DNA of 64,000 nt, from positions 3,456,001 through 3,520,000 of the forward strand of contig JASGHJ010000002.1 of assembly GCA_047602405.1 (NCBI GenBank). The letters are read 5' to 3'. Below are positions 23,773 to 32,661 of the stretch, in pieces; position 1 is the stretch's first letter; every line of letters begins with the position of its first letter. Source of the DNA: Anaeromyxobacteraceae bacterium (GTDB taxonomy: Bacteria; Myxococcota; Myxococcia; Myxococcales; Anaeromyxobacteraceae). The notes under the pieces were generated by a model, which worked only from the letters and a program-made list of their open reading frames with translations, was not told where the DNA came from and did not search any database. The translations under genes were made by a program, and so were the position numbers.

Positions 23773-23838
23773 CCGTGCGAGGGCGGCGTGTCGTCGCCGC
23801 TTCACCGGGGCGCGCCCTTTCGTTATGTTGCGCGCGCC

Positions 23839-25470
23839 ATGGCCAACGCCAACCTCCGCATCCCCGCGCCCCGCAACGAGCCGGTCCTCAACTACGCCCC
23901 GGGCTCGCCCGAGAAGGCGGCCCTCAAGGCGAAGCTCGCCGAGCTCGGCTCGAAGGAGCTCGAGATCCCGCTCGTCATCGGTGGCCGGGAGATCCGCACC
24001 GGCCGGCTCGCCGACGCGCGCGTGCCCCACCGCCACGCGCAGCGGCTCGCCCGCTGGCACCAGGCCGGCCAGGAAGAGGTGAAGGCCGCCATCGAGGCCG
24101 CGCGCGTCGCGCGCAAGCCCTGGGCCGCGATGTCGCCCTACGACCGCGCCGCGATCTTCATCAAGGCCGCCGAGCTCCTCGCCGGCCCGTGGCGGCAGGT
24201 GCTGAACGCCGCGACCATGCTCGGCCAGTCGAAGACGCCCTTCCAGGCGGAGATCGACTCGGCCTGCGAGATCATCGACTTCTGGCGCTTCAACGCGCAC
24301 TTCATGGAGCGGATCCTCGAGGACCAGCCGTATTCGCCGCCCGGGCAGTGGAACCAGCTCGAGGCGCGGCCGCTCGAGGGCTTCGTCTTCGCGGTGACGC
24401 CGTTCAACTTCACGTCCATCGCCGCGAACCTGCCCACCGCGCCCGCGCTGATGGGCAACACGGTGGTCTGGAAGCCGGCCTCCTCCGCGGTCTACTCCGC
24501 GTGGTTCGTGCTGAAGCTCCTCGAGGCCGCGGGGCTCCCGCCCGGCGTCATCAACTTCGTGCCCGGCTCCGGCCGCGCGGTCGGCGACCCCGTCCTCGCG
24601 AGCCCCGAGCTCGCCGGCCTGCACTTCACCGGCTCGACCGGCGTGTTCCAGAACATGTGGAAGACGATCGGCGAGAACCTGCCGCGCTACCACACCTACC
24701 CGCGCATCGTCGGGGAGACCGGCGGCAAGGACTTCATCTTCGTGCACCCGTCGGCCGACCCCGACGCGGCCGCGACCGCGCTCGTGCGCGGCGCGTTCGA
24801 GTTCCAGGGCCAGAAGTGCTCGGCCGCCTCGCGCGCGTACGTCCCGGAGAGCCTGTGGCCGGCGATCCGCGACCGCGTGCTCGGGATGGTCACCGAGATC
24901 AAGATGGGTGAGGTCGAGGACTTCACCACGTTCATGGGCGCGGTCATCGACAAGGACGCGTACGACCGGATCAAGGGGTACATCGAGGTCGCGCGGTCCT
25001 CGTCGCAGGCGAAGATCCTGATCGGCGGGAAGTGCGACGACTCGAAGGGCTGGTTCGTCGAGCCGACCGTCGTAGAGACCGTGAACCCGCGCTTCCAGCT
25101 CATGGAGGAGGAGATCTTCGGGCCGGTGCTGACGCTCTACGTGTACTCGGACGCGAAGCTCGACGAGGCGGTGGAGCTCTGCGGCTCGACGTCGCCGTAC
25201 GCGCTCACCGGCGCCGTGTTCGCGCGCGACCGCGAGGCGGTGGTGGAGCTGCGCGCCCGGCTCGTCGACGCGGCCGGGAACTTCTACGTGAACGACAAGC
25301 CCACCGGCGCGGTGGTCGGGCAGCAGCCGTTCGGCGGCGCGCGCGCGTCGGGCACGAACGACAAGGCGGGATCGATCGCGAACCTGTACCGGTGGACGTC
25401 GCTCCGGGCGATCAAGGAGAACTTCGATCCGCCGACGCGGTTCGAGTATCCGTACATGAAGGAGAAGTGA
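23839..25470 (+). CDS. pruA: L-glutamate gamma-semialdehyde (P5C) dehydrogenase
   Basis: NEPVLNYAPGSPE, QAEIDSACE, PFNFT, GETGGKDF, QGQKCSA, SGTNDKAGS. Confidence 0.95.
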   Translation: MANANLRIPAPRNEPVLNYAPGSPEKAALKAKLAELGSKELEIPLVIGGREIRTGRLADARVPHRHAQRLARWHQAGQEEVKAAIEAARVARKPWAAMSPYDRAAIFIKAAELLAGPWRQVLNAATMLGQSKTPFQAEIDSACEIIDFWRFNAHFMERILEDQPYSPPGQWNQLEARPLEGFVFAVTPFNFTSIAANLPTAPALMGNTVVWKPASSAVYSAWFVLKLLEAAGLPPGVINFVPGSGRAVGDPVLASPELAGLHFTGSTGVFQNMWKTIGENLPRYHTYPRIVGETGGKDFIFVHPSADPDAAATALVRGAFEFQGQKCSAASRAYVPESLWPAIRDRVLGMVTEIKMGEVEDFTTFMGAVIDKDAYDRIKGYIEVARSSSQAKILIGGKCDDSKGWFVEPTVVETVNPRFQLMEEEIFGPVLTLYVYSDAKLDEAVELCGSTSPYALTGAVFARDREAVVELRARLVDAAGNFYVNDKPTGAVVGQQPFGGARASGTNDKAGSIANLYRWTSLRAIKENFDPPTRFEYPYMKEK

Positions 25471-25481
25471 CCACCTCGGCC

Positions 25482-25544
25482 GGACCGGGAGTCACCCGGG
25501 GTGGACCGAGAGTTCCCGCGGGGCGACCGGGAGTCACCCCGGGT
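25482..25544 (+). repeat. Repeat cluster A: 3 x 21-bp units, core ACCGRGAGT
   Basis: GGACCGGGAGTCACCCGGGGT / GGACCGAGAGTTCCCGCGGGG / CGACCGGGAGTCACCCCGGGT; GAGT at 25489, 25510, 25531. Confidence 0.85.
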
Positions 25545-25613
25545 GTACCACCTAGGACAGGCTCCGATCGGACCCGTTGCATCCCGGCGGGGCGTCGGGA
25601 AGGATGCCGGGCC

Positions 25614-26171
25614 ATGACCCGACTCCAAGTCACCCTCGCAGCGTCGCTCCTCGCCCTCGCCACCCCGGCCCTGGCCGCGCCTCCGGCCGCGCAGGCCCAG
25701 CCGGTGCAGCAGCCCGCGGGCGCGGGGCCCAAGATCGGCCTCGGCATCGCCCTCAACTCCGACCCGACCTTCTCGAGCCCGGCCGAGATCCTCGTGCCGA
25801 TCATCCTCAACCCGACGATCCGGGTGGAGCCGTCGCTGGGCATCTTCTCCCGCAACGTCGACGGCGGCACCGACACCCGCAACTTCGTGCTCGGCGTCGG
25901 CGTCCTCGCGGGCAAGCAGGTCGCCCCGGCCACCGAGCTGCTCTTCGGCGGCCGCCTCAAGCTCGGCTTCGCGAAGTTCGACAACGGCGTCACCTCCGAC
26001 TCGGGCACCGACATCCTCATCGCGGGCGCCGCGGGCGCGGAGCACTGGTTCTCCGACAAGTTCTCGCTCGGCCTCGAGGCGCAGCTCGGCTACTACGCGC
26101 TCTCGAACGTGTCCGGCGACGCCTCGGGCTTCTTCACGCAGGGCGCGCTGACCGCGCGCGTGTACTTCTAG
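25614..26171 (+). CDS. Outer-membrane beta-barrel protein
   Basis: Signal peptide, GAEHWFS, terminal ARVYF; similar to 11130-11732. Confidence 0.75.
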   Translation: MTRLQVTLAASLLALATPALAAPPAAQAQPVQQPAGAGPKIGLGIALNSDPTFSSPAEILVPIILNPTIRVEPSLGIFSRNVDGGTDTRNFVLGVGVLAGKQVAPATELLFGGRLKLGFAKFDNGVTSDSGTDILIAGAAGAEHWFSDKFSLGLEAQLGYYALSNVSGDASGFFTQGALTARVYF

Positions 26172-26289
26172 GCGCGACGCGGCCCGTCACGGCGGGCCGA
26201 CCGCGCGTTGCGCAGTGCACGGGAGCCGGCGCCTCGCGGCGCCGGCTCCTCGCGTCTCCGCGCGTCAAGCGCGGTCCTCCGCACCCCGG

Positions 26290-26400
26290 TGGGCCCATCC
26301 CGTCCCTGGGCCCATCCCGTCCCGGAGTTCCCCGCGCGCGCGCCGTCCCAGAGTTCCCGCGCCCCGTCCCGGAGTTCCCCCGCGGCGGCCTTACTCTGGG
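26290..26400 (+). repeat. Repeat cluster B: CCGTCCCRGAGTTCCC x3 plus one inverted core
   Basis: GAGT at 26325, 26351, 26372; inverted ACTCTGGG at 26393; 17-bp tandem TGGGCCCATCCCGTCCC at the left edge. Confidence 0.85.
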
Positions 26401-26498
26401 TGCCCCAAGTGAGCGCAGGGTGAAAGGTGGTTTGCAGTCCCACCGAGGCCGTATGGGTTCGCTGACCGGCCGATCCGCGCGCCGGAGGGGAGAACTCG

Positions 26499-28766
26499 AT
26501 GGCGACGAAACCTGCCCGGGGCGCGCTCGTCGCGCTCACCTCGTCGTTCCTCGCGCTCGCCGCCTGCGGCGGCCCGCCGTCCGAGGCCGAGGGCGCCCTC
26601 GCGCCGCCGCCGCCCGACTCCGCCCTCGCCTGCGACTGCAGCTGGCACTCGGCGTTCGACCTGTGCGTCACGTGCTGCGGCGACGTCGGCCAGGCGGTGT
26701 GCCCGTCCGGTGGCGCCTGCAAGCCGGGCCTCGTCTACAACGCCGCGAAGGCGGTCTGCGACAACCCTCCCCCGGCCTGCGGCTGCAGCTGGCGCTCGGC
26801 CTTCGACCTGTGCGTCACGTGCTGCGGCGACGTCGGCCAGGCCATCTGCCCGACGGGTGACTCGTGCAAGCCGGGGCTCCACTACGACGGCTCGACGACC
26901 CACTGCGAGCAGGCCTGCTCGTGGCACCAGACCGTGTTCGGCAACTGCTGCGGCGACGTCGGCCAGCCGATCTGCGTGAGCGGCGACGCCTGCAAGCCCG
27001 GCCTCCACTACGACGGCTCGACGACGCACTGCGAGCTGCCGTGCTCGTGGCACCAGTCGTCGTTCGGCAACTGCTGCGGCGACGTCGACCAGGTGCACTG
27101 CGATCCGCTCTCCGGCGACACCTGCAAGCCGGGCCTCGCCGTCGGCGTCGCGACCTGCCGTGACTTCCGGACCCCGGGCGAGACCTGCGGGCCGGACTAC
27201 CCGTGCAAGGACGGCTCGAGCTGCGCGCTCGTGGTCGACGCGAGCGCGCTCAAGCTCGAGTGCATGCTCGACAAGGACTCGAACGTCGTTGGCGACCCCG
27301 ACGCGTGCAAGGCCTTCTACAGCGCGGACATCGCCACCGGCGCGAAGAACAGCGGCGGGACGCTCAACTTCGGCGTGGGCGCACAGGGCTCGGTGGGTGT
27401 CGCGGGCGCGATCGAGACCGGCGTCTTCTACACGGAGGACGAGCGGTACGGCTGCTACGTGACCACCTGCTACGGGCTCGAGACGAACGTGGGCATCGGC
27501 GTGTACGGCGTGGTCGGCGAGTCGGACAAGTACGAGGACTTCAAGGGCCACTCGTTCGTGCTGAACCAGCTCGCCGGCATCGAGTTCGTCAGCTACATCA
27601 ACTCGCAGGGGTGGAACTCGAAGGAGGATCTCGGCGCGGGCAAGGCGCCGGTCTCCGCGAGCCAGGCGATCTCCATCGGGCTCGACATCATCCCGATCTC
27701 GGTGGGCGCGGCCGAGTGCGACACGATCACGCAGGTGGTCGTCGGGCAGGACACCGCGAGCCCGCCCGTCGCGCTGTGCCACGACGTCTCAATGACGCCC
27801 GCCACCGGATGCACCGCGGCCGTCTCGGTGAACAACGGGTCGTACAGCCCGACCGCCGGCGTAACGATCACGACGTCCCAGAGCCCCGCCGGCCCGTATC
27901 AGATCGGGAACACCCCGGTGACGCTCACCGCCACCGACTCGAACGGCCTCACGGCGACCTGCAGCGCGACGGTGACCGTGCTCGACGGCGTCCCCCCGGT
28001 CATCACCTGCCCCGCGAACGTCCGGGCCACGAACGAGGCCGGCCGCTGCGACGCCAGGGTCTCGTTCCCGGAGCCGGTCGCGACCGACACCTGCTCCGCG
28101 GTCGCGGCGAGCGCGACGCCGGCGTCGGGCTCCACGTTCGCCGTGGGCACGACCACGGTGAAGGGGCTCGCGCTCGACGAGTACCTCAACACGGCTTCGT
28201 GCTCGTTCACGGTGACGGTGGTGGACGCCGAGGCGCCCGGGATCACGGCGCCGCCGGACATGGTGGTCGACGCGACGATGCCGACGGGCGCGGTGGTGAG
28301 CTACCCGGCGTTCACCGCGACGGACAACTGCGCGGGGTTGGCGGTGGACGCCGAGCCGCCGTCCGGAAGCGTGTTCCCGATCGACCCGGACCCCGCCGGC
28401 TTCACGGAGGTGGTGGGCCGGGCGACGGACGCCGCGGGGAACGTCTCGACGGCGTCGTTCAGGGTGCACGTGAAGGGCGCGCGGGAGCAACTCTCGGACC
28501 TCCTGGCCTTCGTGGAGACCCTGCGGCATCACGAGGGGCTGGAGCACCGGCTCCTGCAGGCGATCCGCGCGCTCGACCGGGGCCGCACGTTCCAGACGTG
28601 CCACACGCTCGGGGAGATCATGGAGGAGCTCGGGGAACAGGAGCGGGAGCGGTGCCCACAGGAGGAGACCGCGGCGCTCCTCACGGCCGCCGGGCGGATC
28701 CGCGACGTGCTGTCCTGCCAGACTTGCCGCGAGGAGGAAGACGAGGGCCTCGCGGACGCGCGCTGA
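26499..28766 (+). CDS. Lipoprotein with four Cys-rich repeats and HYR domains
   Basis: Lipobox LAAC-GG; 4x CSW....(C)..CCGDV.Q..C..G..CKPGL; D..PP.ITCP...P.ATD.C...SGS.F.VG.T.V (HYR). Confidence 0.8.
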   Translation: MATKPARGALVALTSSFLALAACGGPPSEAEGALAPPPPDSALACDCSWHSAFDLCVTCCGDVGQAVCPSGGACKPGLVYNAAKAVCDNPPPACGCSWRSAFDLCVTCCGDVGQAICPTGDSCKPGLHYDGSTTHCEQACSWHQTVFGNCCGDVGQPICVSGDACKPGLHYDGSTTHCELPCSWHQSSFGNCCGDVDQVHCDPLSGDTCKPGLAVGVATCRDFRTPGETCGPDYPCKDGSSCALVVDASALKLECMLDKDSNVVGDPDACKAFYSADIATGAKNSGGTLNFGVGAQGSVGVAGAIETGVFYTEDERYGCYVTTCYGLETNVGIGVYGVVGESDKYEDFKGHSFVLNQLAGIEFVSYINSQGWNSKEDLGAGKAPVSASQAISIGLDIIPISVGAAECDTITQVVVGQDTASPPVALCHDVSMTPATGCTAAVSVNNGSYSPTAGVTITTSQSPAGPYQIGNTPVTLTATDSNGLTATCSATVTVLDGVPPVITCPANVRATNEAGRCDARVSFPEPVATDTCSAVAASATPASGSTFAVGTTTVKGLALDEYLNTASCSFTVTVVDAEAPGITAPPDMVVDATMPTGAVVSYPAFTATDNCAGLAVDAEPPSGSVFPIDPDPAGFTEVVGRATDAAGNVSTASFRVHVKGAREQLSDLLAFVETLRHHEGLEHRLLQAIRALDRGRTFQTCHTLGEIMEELGEQERERCPQEETAALLTAAGRIRDVLSCQTCREEEDEGLADAR

Positions 28767-28792
28767 CCCGGCCTGATCCTGACCCGGCCTCG

Positions 28793-28921
28793 GCCCGTCC
28801 CTCCCGGGGCCCGTCCCAGAGTCCCCGGGGCCCGTCCCAGAGTTCCGGCGGGGCGGGCCCTCCCAGAGTAATCCCGTGCTCTCCCGGAGTCGGGCGGGTG
28901 GGGGGAGTCGGGCGGGTGGGG
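28793..28921 (+). repeat. Repeat cluster C: TCCCRGAGT x4 followed by a G-rich 18-bp tandem
   Basis: GAGT at 28819, 28840, 28866, 28887; then GGAGTCGGGCGGGTGGGG x2. Confidence 0.85.
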
Positions 28922-28960
28922 CCGGTCGGACGCGGTCCGGTCCTGGGGTAGAACGGACGG

Positions 28961-30028
28961 ATGAAGCACCTCCCCCTCGTCGTGCCCGCCGTCGGGCTCG
29001 CCCTCCTTGTGGGGGGTGCCTTCCTGCCCTCGCATGGCCTCCTCGACCTTCTCCGTGGGGTCGTGCTCGTGGCCGCGGTGCTCGCGGCCGTGCACCACGC
29101 GGAGGTCGTCGCCCACCGCGTGGGCGAGCCGTTCGGCACGCTCGTGCTCGCCCTCGCGGTCACGGTCATCGAGGTGGCCCTGGTCGTCTCGATGATGCTC
29201 GCCGCGGGTCCCGAGAAGGCCGCGCTCGCCCGCGACACGATCTTCTCGACGGTGATGATCATCGCGAACGGGGTGATCGGCCTCTGCGTCCTCGTCGGCG
29301 GCCTGCGTCATCGTGAGCAGAGCTTCAAGGTGGAGGGCATGGGGCCGGCGTTCGCGTCCCTCGTGACGCTCGCCACCCTGGTGCTCGTGCTCCCGACCTT
29401 CACGCAGTCGGCGCCTGGCCCCGTGTACTCGCACAGCCAGCTCGTCTTCGCCGGGCTCGCGTCGCTGACGCTCTGGGGCGTCGTCACCTTCGCCCAGACG
29501 GTGCGGCATCGCGACTACTTCCTCCCGCCGGGCGGCGTCCTCGCCGACGACATCCACGCGGAGCCCCCGTCCGCGAGGCGGGCGCTCCTCTCGCTCGCCC
29601 TGCTCTTCGTCTCGCTCGTGTCGGTCGTCGGGCTCGCGAAGGTGCTCTCGCCTCGCGTCGAGGAAGCCGTCGCGGCGGCCGGCGCGCCGGAGTCGGTCAT
29701 CGGCATCGCCATCGCGCTCGTGGTGCTCCTGCCGGAGACGGTCGCCGCGGTGCGGGCGGCGCGGGCGGATCGCCTCCAAACCAGCCTCAACCTCGCGCTC
29801 GGCTCGGCGCTCGCGACCATCGGCCTGACCATCCCGGTCGTCGTGGCGGCCTCGCTCGTCATCGGCTTCCCGCTCGTACTCGGGCTCGAGGGGAAGGACC
29901 TCGTCCTCCTGCTCCTCACCGCGGTGGTGGGTGCGGTAACGCTCGGTCCGGGCCGGACCAGCATCCTCCAAGGCGCGATCCACCTTGTGGTGTTCGCGGC
30001 CTTCCTGTTCCTGGCGCTCGTACCGTAG
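28961..30028 (+). CDS. chaA: Ca2+/H+ antiporter (CaCA family)
   Basis: AVHHAEVVAHRVGEPFGTLVLALAVTVIEV; LLPE; NLALGSALATIGLTIP; LQGAIHL. Confidence 0.9.
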   Translation: MKHLPLVVPAVGLALLVGGAFLPSHGLLDLLRGVVLVAAVLAAVHHAEVVAHRVGEPFGTLVLALAVTVIEVALVVSMMLAAGPEKAALARDTIFSTVMIIANGVIGLCVLVGGLRHREQSFKVEGMGPAFASLVTLATLVLVLPTFTQSAPGPVYSHSQLVFAGLASLTLWGVVTFAQTVRHRDYFLPPGGVLADDIHAEPPSARRALLSLALLFVSLVSVVGLAKVLSPRVEEAVAAAGAPESVIGIAIALVVLLPETVAAVRAARADRLQTSLNLALGSALATIGLTIPVVVAASLVIGFPLVLGLEGKDLVLLLLTAVVGAVTLGPGRTSILQGAIHLVVFAAFLFLALVP

Positions 30029-30052
30029 CGGGCCGTACCAGCGAAGCGACGG

Positions 30053-30135
30053 CGACGGCGGTCCATCCCGGAGTCACGGCGGACGGTCCGACGGCGGTCC
30101 ATCCCGGAGTCACGGCGGACGGTCCCGGAGTACCG
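30053..30135 (+). repeat. Repeat cluster D: 36-bp direct duplication containing TCCCGGAGT x3
   Basis: CGACGGCGGTCCATCCCGGAGTCACGGCGGACGGTC x2; GAGT at 30071, 30107, 30128. Confidence 0.85.
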
Positions 30136-30206
30136 CCGATCGGCCGGTGGTCCGCGGCGCGGACCCTCCGCGATCAGCCCGAATACGTGATCACGCAGGC
30201 TTACGC

Positions 30207-30223
30207 CCGGCACGGCTCCTGCG
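30207..30223 (+). promoter_or_regulatory. Candidate sigma54 promoter of the RAYT-like gene
   Basis: ccGGCACGGCTCCTGCg = GG-N10-GC; ATG lies 14 nt after the GC. Confidence 0.55.
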
Positions 30224-30235
30224 ATGCAGCGCCGT

Positions 30236-31129
30236 ATGACCGCTCCCCGCCAGGTGCTCCAGGGCAAGACTTCACTCGTCACCCGCCGCACGGCCAGACA
30301 GGAATTCCTCCTCAAGCCGGCCAAGTACACCAGCGCACTCTTCGGCTATCTGCTCGCCGTCGCGTCCTCACGCTATGGGCTCGACGTCCACGCCTTCGTG
30401 GTGATGTCCAACCATTACCACCTCGTCGTCACCGACCATCACGCGCGGTTACCGCTCTTCTGCCAGTACCTCGACGGCCTGTGCGCGAGAGCGATGAACG
30501 TGGAGTGGGGCCGGTCGGAGGACTTCTGGGGGCCCCCGACCTTCAGCGACGTCACGCTCGTCACAAAGGAAGCGGTCCTCGCGAAGGTGCTCTACACGCT
30601 CACCAACCCCGTGGAGGCCGAGCTCGTTGCGAAGGGCAGCGAGTGGCCCGGGCTCTGGTCGAGCCCCGAGCTCATCGGCGCCGGCACGCTCACCTTCGAG
30701 CGTCCGGAGGGCTTCTTCGACCCCAAGGGCGTGATGCCAGAGCAGGCGTTCCTCACCCTCAAGACACCGTCCGGTTACACGAGGGAAGACTTCCACAGGC
30801 TGCTCACCGCGCAGCTCACCTCCTTCGAGGCGGACATGGCCAAAGCGCTCGAGCATCTCGGCCGCCGGGTCCTCGGGGTGAAGAAGGTCCTGAAGCAGCG
30901 CCACACCGACCGGCCGGCGGCCCGGGCGCAGCGCAGCGAGCTCAAGCCGCGCATCGCCACGCGGGACAAGTGGAGGCGGATCGAGGCGCTCGGGCGGCTG
31001 AAGGCGTTCCTCGAGGAGTATCAGGAGGCCATCACCCGGTACCGGGGCGGAGCGCACGACACGCGCTTCCCGGCCGGCACGTACTGGATGCGCGTCTGCT
31101 TCGGCGTGGCGTGCGCCGGGTCCGGGTAG
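30236..31129 (+). mobile_element. HUH Y1 transposase-family nuclease (RAYT/TnpA-REP-like) with C-terminal extension
   Basis: AFVVMSNHYHLVV (HUH), FW, Y...NPVEA.LV....WP catalytic Tyr region. About 150 extra C-terminal residues ending FPAGTYWMRV. No tnpB. Confidence 0.88.
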
Positions 31130-31154
31130 AAGGCCCGAGCGCGTCCGGTTCGGT

Positions 31155-32661
31155 TCAGCCCGGTAGCCGCACGGTCACCGTCGTCCCCTTCCCGACCTCG
31201 CTCGTGACGCTCACCTCGCCGCCGTGCGCGTCGACGATGCGCTTCACGAGCGCGAGCCCGAGCCCCGTCCCGCCGGTACCGCGCTGACGGCTGCGGTCGG
31301 TCCGGAAGAAGGGCGTGAAGAGGCGCGGCAAGTCCGCTGCCTCGATCCCGATACCCCGGTCCTGCACCTCGAGCACGGCGGTGCCGCCTTCGACGCGCAC
31401 CCGCACCGTGATCGGCGCGGGCGCTTCGGAGTACTTCCCAGCATTGTCGACGAGGTTCGCGACCAGCCGCCGCAGCAGCGCGGCGTCGCCCTGGACCGCG
31501 ACCCCTGCGCCCCGACTCTCGGATGGCACGGTGGAACTCTGGGACGGACCTGCGTCGGGGAGACTCTGGGACGGGCTGGGGAGACTCCCGGACGGGGTGA
31601 TGAGCTCGACCACCCGGGCGGGGTGTGCCTCCCCCCACCGCCCCGCCGCCTCCCTCGCCACCACCTCGAGATCCACCGGGGCGCGCTGGATCGGCCACCG
31701 CGAACCCTGGCCGCTCGCGGCCTCCAGGTTCGCCATGTCGAGCCGCGCGGCGGCGAGGACGTCCTCGACCAGCCGGTCCAGCTCGTCGAGGTCGGCCCCG
31801 ATGCCGGCGAGGTGCCGCCGCGCCTTCTCGAGGTCCCCCTCCGCCGCGAGCTCGAGCGCCACCCGGATGCGCGCCATGGGGGTCCTCAGCTCGTGCGACA
31901 CGTTCGCGAGCAGCTCCTGCTCCGACCGCACCAGCCGCTCGAGCCGCGCCGCGGCCTCGTCGAACGTCCGCCCGAGCTCGCCCACCTCGCCCCGGCCGCG
32001 CACGTTCGCGCGCGCCGAGAGGTCTCCCTCCCCGAGCCGCCGGGCGGCGTCGGTGATGCGCTCGAGCGGCGCCGCGATCGACCGCGCGAGCGGGACCGAC
32101 CCGACCGCCAGCGCGAAGAGCACCGCGCCGATGATCGAGATCAGCCGGATCACGTGGTCCTCCGCCGGCGGCGGAGGGGTGGCGAGCAGCATCGCCCCGC
32201 CGCGCAGCGGCACCGCCCAGCCCCAGGGACGCCCGTGCAGCCGCTGCGCCTCCCGGAGCGGCGCCTCGCCGGCCCGCTCGCGCGGGATTGGCGGCTCCGC
32301 GCTGGACGCGACGAGCGTCCCGTCGCCGTCCCACACCGTGGCGCGCACGCCGAACGCCTCGCGAACCCGCAGGAGCTCGGCCGCGAGGCGCCGCGGATCC
32401 TGCCGCAGCTCCTCCACCCGCGTCGTCGCGTACTCCACCGCGGGCCCGCCGCCGTTCCAGACGCTGCCGGGACGGAACAGCCAGCCCGTCACCCCGACCG
32501 CAACCGCCACGAGCACGAGGAGCGCCACGCCGTGCAGGTAGACGCGCCAGAAGAGACGGCCCGTGGCCGTGGCGGTGGTGCCGCCGGTGGTGGCGCAGGT
32601 GCCTGAATTGCGCCCGCCGCCACTCGCGCGGGTCCCTCCGCTCCGCGCCGTCCGGCCTCAC
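31155..32661 (-). CDS. HAMP-domain sensor histidine kinase (CpxA-like; apparent +1 frameshift at about 32560; in-frame repeat insertion)
   Basis: HAMP, NVSHELRTPMARI, NLVDNAGKY, DRGIGI, GTGLGL. GTG at 32661 overlaps the regulator stop and gives a His-rich N-terminus. Confidence 0.88.
31511..31597 (-). repeat. Repeat cluster E: CCRTCCSRGAGT x4, inside the kinase CDS
   Basis: ACTC at 31515, 31536, 31563, 31584; encodes PSGSLPSPSQSLPDAGPSQSSTVPSESRG. Confidence 0.85.

Follow-up and report, generated by a model that had tools for sequence, protein, structure and literature searches.

Why should a gene for a Y1/HUH protein resembling the REP-associated tyrosine transposases (RAYTs) be surrounded by five clusters of the same short motif, and what is this repeat to the enzyme? 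We addressed this question in a stretch of 64,000 nucleotides from an Anaeromyxobacteraceae bacterium (assembly GCA_047602405.1, contig JASGHJ010000002.1, positions 3,456,001 to 3,520,000; referred to as the window here). An original prediction, made from the letters of the window alone, suggested that the clusters might be a phased direct-repeat array with variable spacers, which the nuclease would recognize as double-stranded sites or which would be made into small RNAs. Comparison with related genomes points to a different answer. The repeat is the terminal sequence of a small, apparently undescribed insertion-sequence-like element that codes for the Y1/HUH protein, and the arrays were probably made by this enzyme, acting in cis through one-ended and mostly abortive transfer of the element's ends.

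The window belongs to a genome of 6.16 Mb and 74% G+C (G000), which we compared with its sister genome (G026) and with other genomes of the family (G001, G002, G003, G004, G006, G007, G082, and G087); element loci carry L numbers. A recount of the motif WCCSRGAGT placed copies on the plus strand at 25484, 25505, and 25526 (cluster 1), at 26320, 26346, and 26367 (cluster 2), at 28814, 28835, 28861, and 28882 (cluster 3), and at 30066, 30102, and 30123 (cluster 4), and on the minus strand at 31515, 31536, 31563, and 31584 (cluster 5), confirming the predicted clusters, their positions, and their spacings, 8 of 12 of which are 21 bp. The 6.1 kb from 25482 to 31597 contain 19 matches, versus 0 or 1 in 964 of the 992 genome tiles of 6.2 kb. 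A genome-wide count of motif pairs had been proposed as a check, and every same-strand 21-bp spacing among the 276 matches in G000 (8 pairs) indeed falls in the window, beside the nuclease gene. The only other arrays of at least three copies in G000 are a six-copy array 5 kb from a Y1 paralog and an unrelated 13-bp microsatellite. The latter (near G000:C1 2168222) has at least 15 copies, includes the short motif, and lies more than 50 kb from any Y1 gene. At G000:C2 2830509 and 3045539, likewise far from Y1 genes, the short motif forms inverted pairs (spacing, 11 bp) that are nearly identical to each other and belong to a larger palindromic repeat. A lone minus-strand copy at 28490, in coding sequence, is probably a chance match.

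The four upstream clusters were said to fill intergenic gaps. This holds: all on the plus strand, they occupy the gaps separating the aldehyde dehydrogenase, β-barrel, HYR-domain, Ca/H exchanger, and Y1 genes. The inverted downstream cluster is not intergenic and lies in frame in a kinase open reading frame (ORF). The arrays are nonpalindromic overall, as predicted, in that neither strand folds better than dinucleotide shuffles do (z, −1.7 to +0.1), except that the linkers of cluster 1 are short palindromes. The constant part had been put at about 10 to 12 nt; the conserved unit is longer, about 13 to 17 nt, and begins 4 nt 5′ of WCCSRGAGT. Seven linkers looked up in the genome have 1 to 13 occurrences each and are too short to be informative.

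Seven copies of the Y1 gene are found in G000, and their flanks show a related motif on both sides, in inverted orientation. One of the seven (L007/L008; G000:C2:581817-582693) is split by a frameshift near codon 52. Across the family the motif forms an imperfect terminal inverted repeat (TIR), CC(C)GACCSAGAGT(A), which points inward at both ends of the element: the left motif lies 94 to 116 bp before the ORF in 84 of 99 nonredundant loci, the right motif 200 to 262 bp after it, on the opposite strand, in 71 of the 99. The end-to-end length is 1,216 to 1,291 bp (n = 61). Five positions outside the search pattern are conserved as well, and information drops sharply beyond, at position −6, at both ends. 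An end profile trained on the 99 loci gave 137 forward versus 2 reverse matches in the 500 bp upstream of the gene and 0 forward versus 184 reverse matches downstream. When this profile was applied to 76 metagenome loci outside the training set (80 fetched, 4 dropped as duplicates or unmatched), its success among loci with enough flank was 64 of 68 for the left end and 47 of 52 for the right, and no end was placed on the wrong strand. Single ends were found in 44 of the 76 held-out loci and more than one copy at an end in 32. That the substrate is a phased array with variable spacers is not supported by these data, since most homologs have one inverted copy per end of a ∼1.25-kb unit, and the tandem copies that do occur at ends are spaced 18 to 69 bp apart, with a pitch of 21 bp in only 2 of 98 pairs.

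The predicted tie between repeat and nuclease, on the other hand, was borne out. At least six strict copies of the repeat occur in 52 of the 62 genomes with the Y1 gene versus none of the 30 without it, with medians of 13 and 1 copies per genome (reversed-pattern control, 1.8); these genomes include kin and hence are not independent. Distant homologs carry altered end motifs with the same stutter of tandem copies, and the checks that had been suggested thus favor a link of the motif to the enzyme. As anticipated, the repeat is not a GTAG/GTGG-type hairpin of the repetitive extragenic palindromic (REP) kind, no such element being present in the end logo. The Y1 family is found in 62 of 92 Anaeromyxobacteraceae genomes, in 1 to 14 copies each, and, at an E value of 1e-50, in 2 of 174 other sampled Myxococcota genomes. 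At 1e-30 it comprises 1,566 cluster representatives; its named relatives come from Anaeromyxobacteraceae and other Myxococcota.

Parts of the window's element can be assigned from this family-wide pattern as follows.

30119..30132, plus strand: left terminal repeat, located as in the rest of the family about 100 bp upstream of the ORF.
30141..30165, plus strand: subterminal boxes of the CGGACC type (direct, inverted, direct) with a 20- to 21-bp period, putative protein-binding sites.
30208..30222, plus strand: σ54-type −24/−12 motif, GGCACG-N4-YTGC.
30236..31129, plus strand: Y1/HUH gene, RAYT-like (TnpA-Y1 class 2), coding for 297 amino acids with a C-terminal extension of ∼150 amino acids.

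The Y1 protein stays below threshold against both Pfam Y1_Tnp (19.1 bits; cutoff, 23) and NCBIfam NF047646, REP-associated tyrosine transposase (44.1 bits; curated cutoff, 80). Its catalytic residues are intact (N63-H64-Y65-H66, Y124, N128, and P129, forming NHYH and YxxxNP), and NHxH and YxxxNP are retained in 86 of 86 homologous proteins. In all 86, 58 to 59 residues separate the second His from the Tyr, resembling the 2.1-type protein used for comparison. The predicted structure (mean pLDDT, 84) has its best match in Escherichia coli TnpA-REP (PDB 4ER8; Foldseek E value, 1.7e-6; Z, 13.9; root mean square deviation, 3.5; 155 residues aligned). As the HuH motif, the Y---NP motif, and, in the model, the TnpA-REP fold are all present, the protein is a member of TnpA-Y1 class 2. 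The last ∼150 residues are conserved among homologs. In model comparisons this C-terminal part resembled no solved fold above a Z of 3.6, a Pfam scan of 18 members found only Y1_Tnp (in 16 of 18) and no C-terminal family, and an Atlas search with it returned only unnamed Myxococcota clusters.

Among 140 left arms, CGGACC-type boxes recur at +2, at +21/22, inverted 8 to 10 nt later, and once more 19 to 21 nt after the second. A conserved hairpin in these 140 arms is weak at best (pairing, 65 to 67% versus 63 to 65% in shuffles; P, 0.04 to 0.13). Because pairing barely exceeds that of shuffles, the boxes look like spaced binding sites rather than a hairpin, and their fixed 20- to 21-bp distance makes a role of the predicted phased double-stranded sites plausible. 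The boxes could equally serve a host enhancer-binding protein. The GGCACG-N4-YTGC motif lies 27 to 30 nt before the start codon in 50 of 63 nonredundant elements (strict pattern; none in the gene-body control) and in 57 of 75 held-out loci. We take it to be a σ54 promoter, in which case the start site would fall at the start codon and the transcript would be leaderless. No σ70 promoter was found above shuffles, and the locus had no match in Rfam or in a plasmid search.

What distinguishes the window's copy is its right side. The kinase stop codon lies only 25 bp from that of the Y1 gene, where a right arm of ∼220 bp normally sits; hence, the right arm is gone in both G000 and G026. On this and the following comparisons, cluster 4 is the left end of the element, clusters 1 to 3 are orphans, that is, end copies away from the element, and cluster 5 is an in-frame insertion of 27 residues in a histidine kinase.

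25480..25543, plus strand: cluster 1, three orphan end copies at 21-bp pitch in the native gap between the aldehyde dehydrogenase and β-barrel genes.
26290..26401, plus strand: cluster 2, three end copies (26 and 21 bp), preceded by two truncated 5′ pieces; an inverted copy at 26393-26401 makes an inward-facing pair.
28793..28920, plus strand: cluster 3, four end copies (21, 26, and 21 bp) with partial units on either side.
30053..30132, plus strand: cluster 4, the stuttered left end; an exact 36-bp duplication (30053-30088 and 30089-30124), then the terminal copy.
31502..31601, minus strand: cluster 5, four end copies (21, 27, and 21 bp) in frame in the kinase at residues ∼310 to 342, encoding PSxS peptides, net +27 residues.

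The last copy in cluster 4 is the left terminus itself; the 36-bp duplication before this terminus is missing in G026. The kinase aligns end to end with five of five more distant orthologs, none of which has the 27 extra residues, while the G026 kinase has a differently built insertion at the same place. That the right end in the kinase belongs to a captured 3′ half of a gene was ruled out, as the orthologs align end to end. Cluster 1 is remodeled in G026, where it has two copies, and no motif was seen after the same stop codon in the compared sequence of 18 other relatives; the junction is native. Cluster 2 is absent from the orthologous G026 site, which holds unrelated sequence of similar length. 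At the site of cluster 3 the sister locus has five copies with other linkers. A G000 paralog (C2:3726578) shares this state; its repeat is a distinct variant, present in six copies versus four in G026. Between G000 and G026, the Y1 gene at this shared site differs by 65 synonymous and 41 nonsynonymous codon changes, and in both genomes it is intact.

The genes around the clusters are the following.

23788..25470, plus strand: aldehyde dehydrogenase gene, host, left neighbor.
25596..26171, plus strand: outer membrane β-barrel gene, host.
26499..28766, plus strand: gene for a Cys-rich, lipoprotein-like protein with HYR domains, between clusters 2 and 3.
28961..30028, plus strand: Ca2+/H+ exchanger gene, between clusters 3 and 4.
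31155..32528, minus strand: native sensor histidine kinase gene.

The product of 26499-28766 has 755 amino acids, a lipoprotein-like start, four Cys-rich repeats (42 to 49 amino acids), and three HYR domains.

To see how the extra copies are built, we aligned 142 adjacent same-strand pairs. The stretch that a pair shares starts 5 to 7 nt (69 pairs) or 0 nt (26 pairs) outside the repeat, and its commonest end point is +17 to +19 (51 pairs), so that extra copies are mostly pieces of 17 to 25 nt anchored at the outer terminus, sometimes of 40 to 1,400 nt. Copies upstream of the gene match the true left end mostly over 12 to 33 nt, and also over 41 to 54, 81, 111, 437, 518, and 1,426 nt, a series of left-end prefixes that is fixed at the outer terminus and variable inward. 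Linkers are of low complexity or pieces of the end itself. The 21-bp pitch marks some orphan arrays only, and it matches the 20- to 21-bp box period of the left arm.

Orphans tend to cluster around Y1 genes. Of the nonterminal clusters, 10 of 13 in G001 and 11 of 13 in G002 lie within 40 kb of the gene, a span that makes up 6.4% of each genome, and in G000 none of the six true arrays of at least three copies is farther than about 5 kb from one or the other of two Y1 genes, which have a variant each. One array of about 85 to 95 bp in G002 is a clean gain relative to G001. At least two distal clusters are present at 7 of 16 loci without a normal right end versus 7 of 52 others, where 4 of the 16 are profile misses and the rest represent about four or five lineages. 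On a quick tree (L120/L122 are not among its rows), the copies with halos are dispersed and do not form one subfamily. Several loci deserve mention in their own right. At L117 and L124 (G001 and G002), two end copies face each other about 640 to 800 bp past the gene and bracket a piece of host coding sequence, with which they appear to be in frame. Nested 5′ gene fragments, each with its own left end, lie upstream of an intact copy at L213 (G006:C1:2626000-2637000) and at G001:C1:4620038. In G003:C1:4292221-4346763, five strict end copies occupy four sites over 55 kb; the family gene is absent from the vicinity, and an element since lost may have left this halo.

Evidence for mobility comes from a comparison of filled and empty sites. 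Eight of 93 elements were flagged; four are true pairs, three are self-matches, and one has no clear right end. For two G007 elements, empty sites were sought with only one flank matched. Neither a short target duplication nor a fixed distance to CTAG showed an excess over shuffled flanks, in 32 and in 102 elements, and a long target duplication can be rejected as the rule: exact 35-bp direct repeats flank L086 and L093, in different genomes, and no other elements. Outermost end copies often follow the stop codon of a same-direction gene (98 of 243 terminal and 20 of 88 distal copies, using a crude ORF filter), and in two cases the element end itself provides the stop codon of the preceding gene. 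At L090 (G082:C22), two identical copies lie in direct orientation 4.3 kb apart, in the manner of a composite transposon.

Comparison of sequences thus shows that the element has defined ends, that it forms discrete insertions without duplicating its target, that extra copies are pieces fixed at the outer terminus, that arrays are gained and remodeled between close relatives, and that orphans cluster near the gene. We favor cis-acting, one-ended, mostly abortive end transfer by an enzyme like those of the TIR-associated RAYT-like group (TIRYTs) as the probable origin of the arrays, while leaving substantial room for doubt. The window's locus would then be a fixed copy of the ∼1.25-kb element, whose enzyme would recognize the nonpalindromic inverted terminal repeat of 13 to 17 nt. 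Made from a leaderless σ54 transcript, the enzyme may act mainly near its own gene, binding the phased boxes and nicking 0 to 6 nt outside the repeat, as the products suggest. TnpA-REP forms a covalent 5′-phosphotyrosine, which is transferred to a 3′-OH, according to the available part of its description (PMC8266576), and we assume by analogy the same 5′-phosphotyrosine chemistry for the Y1 enzyme of the window. From the nick, one-ended transfer or copying would begin and in most cases break off at about 20 nt; the result would be a stutter at the element's end or an orphan a few kilobases off. Events that ran to completion would be rare and would give new insertions or overwritten sibling copies. 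For the window copy, without its right arm, only abortive events would be possible, and the copies retained by selection would be those in intergenic positions or in frame within a loop. The 21-bp pitch may reflect a 17-nt end piece plus about 4 nt, which is the distance from the terminal box to the next.

A number of observations speak against this origin of the arrays or are left unexplained by it. All seven element sites are common to G000 and G026, so G026 offers no empty sites, and the lineage has thus seen no recent transposition. Gene conversion may account for near-identical copies: four paralogs (L044 to L047 in G000 and L244 to L247 in G026) are 98 to 100% identical within a genome and 92% between orthologous sites, and their right arms, only 48 to 63% alike between genomes, have been replaced across the genome except at one site, whose own arm persists in both. 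Given this homogenization, copies were overwritten in place, and identical copies (e.g., in G087) alone do not prove recent jumps. The two flanks of four G004 elements are not adjacent in six relatives, and no empty sites were obtained from them. Among distal pairs, 21 bp is the modal pitch (9 of 35), although 7 of these 9 come from the close genomes G001 and G002, and the strict pattern in this count missed most of the window's own pairs. Orphans often have a CGT tail (31 of 101) that is rare at ends (7 of 250) and is thus not explained by plain copying of the present end. No halo is seen in G003 (1 of 8) or G006 (0 of 8), nor around five of the seven copies in G000, and the two genomes with the clearest counts, G001 and G002, are close kin with shared sites. 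Orientation toward the gene is strict for all five clusters in the window and weak in G001 (10 versus 7) and G002 (13 versus 9). Unexplained are also the 35-bp duplications at L086 and L093 and a right arm of constant length and hypervariable sequence. Near-identical G087 genes have right arms that diverge at variable points past the stop codon with unchanged length; those of L079 and L083 to L089 keep about 190 to 240 bp with no conserved sequence. Recruitment of this arm from target flanks was considered and rejected, as no counterpart of the odd arm of L079 turned up either in the flank DNA of 12 relatives or elsewhere in G087.

Some of these observations would fit arrays that are scars, left by full elements deleted to their ends near the gene or by successive left ends that captured the HYR and exchanger genes as cargo, with slippage then multiplying the ends. 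Elements do sit at synteny breaks, the HYR, exchanger, and Y1 genes stand between genes that adjoin in relatives, nested partial left ends with gene fragments exist in G006 and G001, and inward-facing orphan pairs occur 100 to 200 bp apart. We nevertheless regard this explanation as unlikely, because the junction that holds cluster 1 is native, as is the gene that holds cluster 5, which can be aligned with its orthologs over the full length, cluster 2 is absent in G026 even though the HYR gene is present there, the G002 array was cleanly gained, and duplication breakpoints are clustered rather than uniform.

Domestication is less probable still. Here the host would keep the fixed copy, and the arrays would be functional sites, bound by the Y1 protein or by a σ54 enhancer-binding protein, that regulate or organize neighboring genes. 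The intact gene and its codon changes in G000 and G026, the start of the terminal repeat with a box like those upstream of the σ54 motif, the location of orphans mostly in gaps between genes, and the excess of distal clusters at loci without a normal right end agree with this notion. However, arrays are gained, lost, and remodeled between sister genomes, one of them is part of a coding sequence, copies with halos are dispersed over the tree, and the 16 loci behind the excess include 4 profile misses and otherwise represent few lineages.

That a repeat-spacer array serves as enzyme substrate or source of small guide RNAs, the notion closest to the original prediction, appears very improbable. 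A constant core, variable linkers of 8 to 14 nt, and the 21-bp pitch in the window, which is also the commonest distal pitch, gave it some appeal; most homologs nonetheless have single ends, the linkers are low-complexity or end-derived and too short to address a target, and folding does not exceed shuffles. Small RNAs from the arrays find no support, given that one array is protein coding, in frame, and that the one at the left end is simply a duplicated stretch of 36 bp. Origins independent of the gene, whether chance or slippage of the usual kind in GC-rich sequence, have in their favor the 13-bp microsatellite elsewhere in G000 but are hardly credible in view of the enrichment, the strand rule, and the gene dependence, and are refuted by the absence of at least six copies from all 30 gene-less genomes.

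A broader role can be proposed tentatively: the HUH enzyme might be a local sequence writer that, under σ54 control, recognizes phased double-strand boxes at inverted ends and repeatedly pastes a tag of ∼20 nt within tens of kilobases of its own gene, and fixed copies might remodel intergenic regions and protein loops and be kept by hosts for that. Such a writer would stand visibly between mobile Y1 elements and domesticated RAYTs that have repeat families of their own, and would be a candidate short-tag insertion enzyme. The family bears on how RAYT-like repeats spread and on what the hairpin-less subclasses use as substrates. Its local halo hints at the way in which repeat families may arise once a transposase has become immobilized, and the kinase insertion shows that end copies can alter host proteins. 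These questions are directly testable, since the family offers a 13- to 17-nt end, a predicted nick window 0 to 6 nt outside this end, cultured hosts, both filled and empty sites, and natural products in the hundreds.

Known systems share features with this element to different degrees. IS200/IS605 elements (IS608 and ISDra2) belong to the same Y1 chemistry family and insert without target duplication, as does the present element apart from its two 35-bp exceptions, but they have unlike subterminal hairpins on one strand and a short TnpA (∼150 amino acids) with Y---Q, in contrast to the symmetric inverted ends, YxxxNP, and 297 amino acids found here. One-ended HUH transposition with one fixed and one fuzzy end is also a property of IS91 and Helitrons, which use Rep-type enzymes and have direct or unlike ends. 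Replitrons likewise combine a fixed with a fuzzy end, as in our prefix series and mosaic right arms, yet in the accessible part of their description they have Rep-type enzymes and direct or unlike ends (PMC10288648), whereas the products here are mostly about 20 nt. From CRISPR-like or guide arrays the system differs by its variable pitch, its self-derived or low-complexity linkers, and the in-frame coding copy. REPtrons, as far as their descriptions extend (E. coli TnpA-REP and group 2/3 RAYTs; PMC5581495 and PMC8266576), share the fold, the position of the gene amid its repeat, and the occurrence of repeats in frame in genes. They differ in the GT[AG]G-footed hairpins of subclasses 2.2, 2.4, 2.5, 2.7, and 2.8, which the present element lacks, and in having hundreds of copies genome-wide rather than tens near the gene; the gene here is multicopy (1 to 14) and mobile, whereas that of REPtrons is single-copy.

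Closest are the TIRtrons, RAYT-like genes flanked by TIRs whose dimers and clusters have been described and not all of which carry GGGGWSAS, according to the part of the report available to us (Di Nocera 2013; PMC3733652). A later classification, likewise available in part, defines TnpA-Y1 class 2 by the HuH and Y---NP motifs, equates TIRYTs with subclass 2.1, and lists no REP-like partner for subclasses 2.1 and 2.3; subgroup 2.1.2 has a C-terminal helix-turn-helix (HTH) domain (Bac_DnaA_C, HTH_23, or HTH_28) and subgroup 2.1.1 another extension (Quentin 2018; PMC6006769). The 55-amino-acid insertion of subclass 2.3 between β3 and αC is absent here, as judged from the constant His-Tyr distance, and with respect to subgroup 2.1.2, Pfam found no Bac_DnaA_C or HTH domain, and the C-terminal model reached a best Z of 3.6. 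In the searched supplements of PMC3733652 and PMC6006769 there was no Anaeromyxobacter or Myxococc- entry, although Figure 9 and additional files 4 and 5 of PMC3733652 may hold related ends; in a search that did not extend to subscription journals or ISfinder, we found no literature on this family or on local halos of end copies. Distant Opitutae matches (YxHLNP) do show GGGGTCAG upstream, and at L035, upstream of 7986, an Opitutae gene of the subclass 2.1 type has a tandem stutter of its GGGGTCAG-containing end, which suggests that stuttering may be general among TIRYTs.

Like the TIRtrons as partially described, the family has a Y1 gene between TIRs (the window copy itself lacking a normal right end), no GTAG hairpins, TIR copies elsewhere as dimers and clusters, YxxxNP and NHYH motifs, and a long C-terminal tail. 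Its upstream end is CC(C)GACCSAGAGT rather than GGGGWSAS oriented toward the gene, the nearest match being 6 to 7 of 8 positions on the other strand; it reaches up to 14 copies, with filled and empty sites; and the outer-anchored stutters, halos over tens of kilobases, in-frame host insertion, and σ54 motif are not mentioned in the accessible part of the TIRtron description. Judged from sequence, the system would work like a TIRtron, yet differs from it in end motif and copy number.

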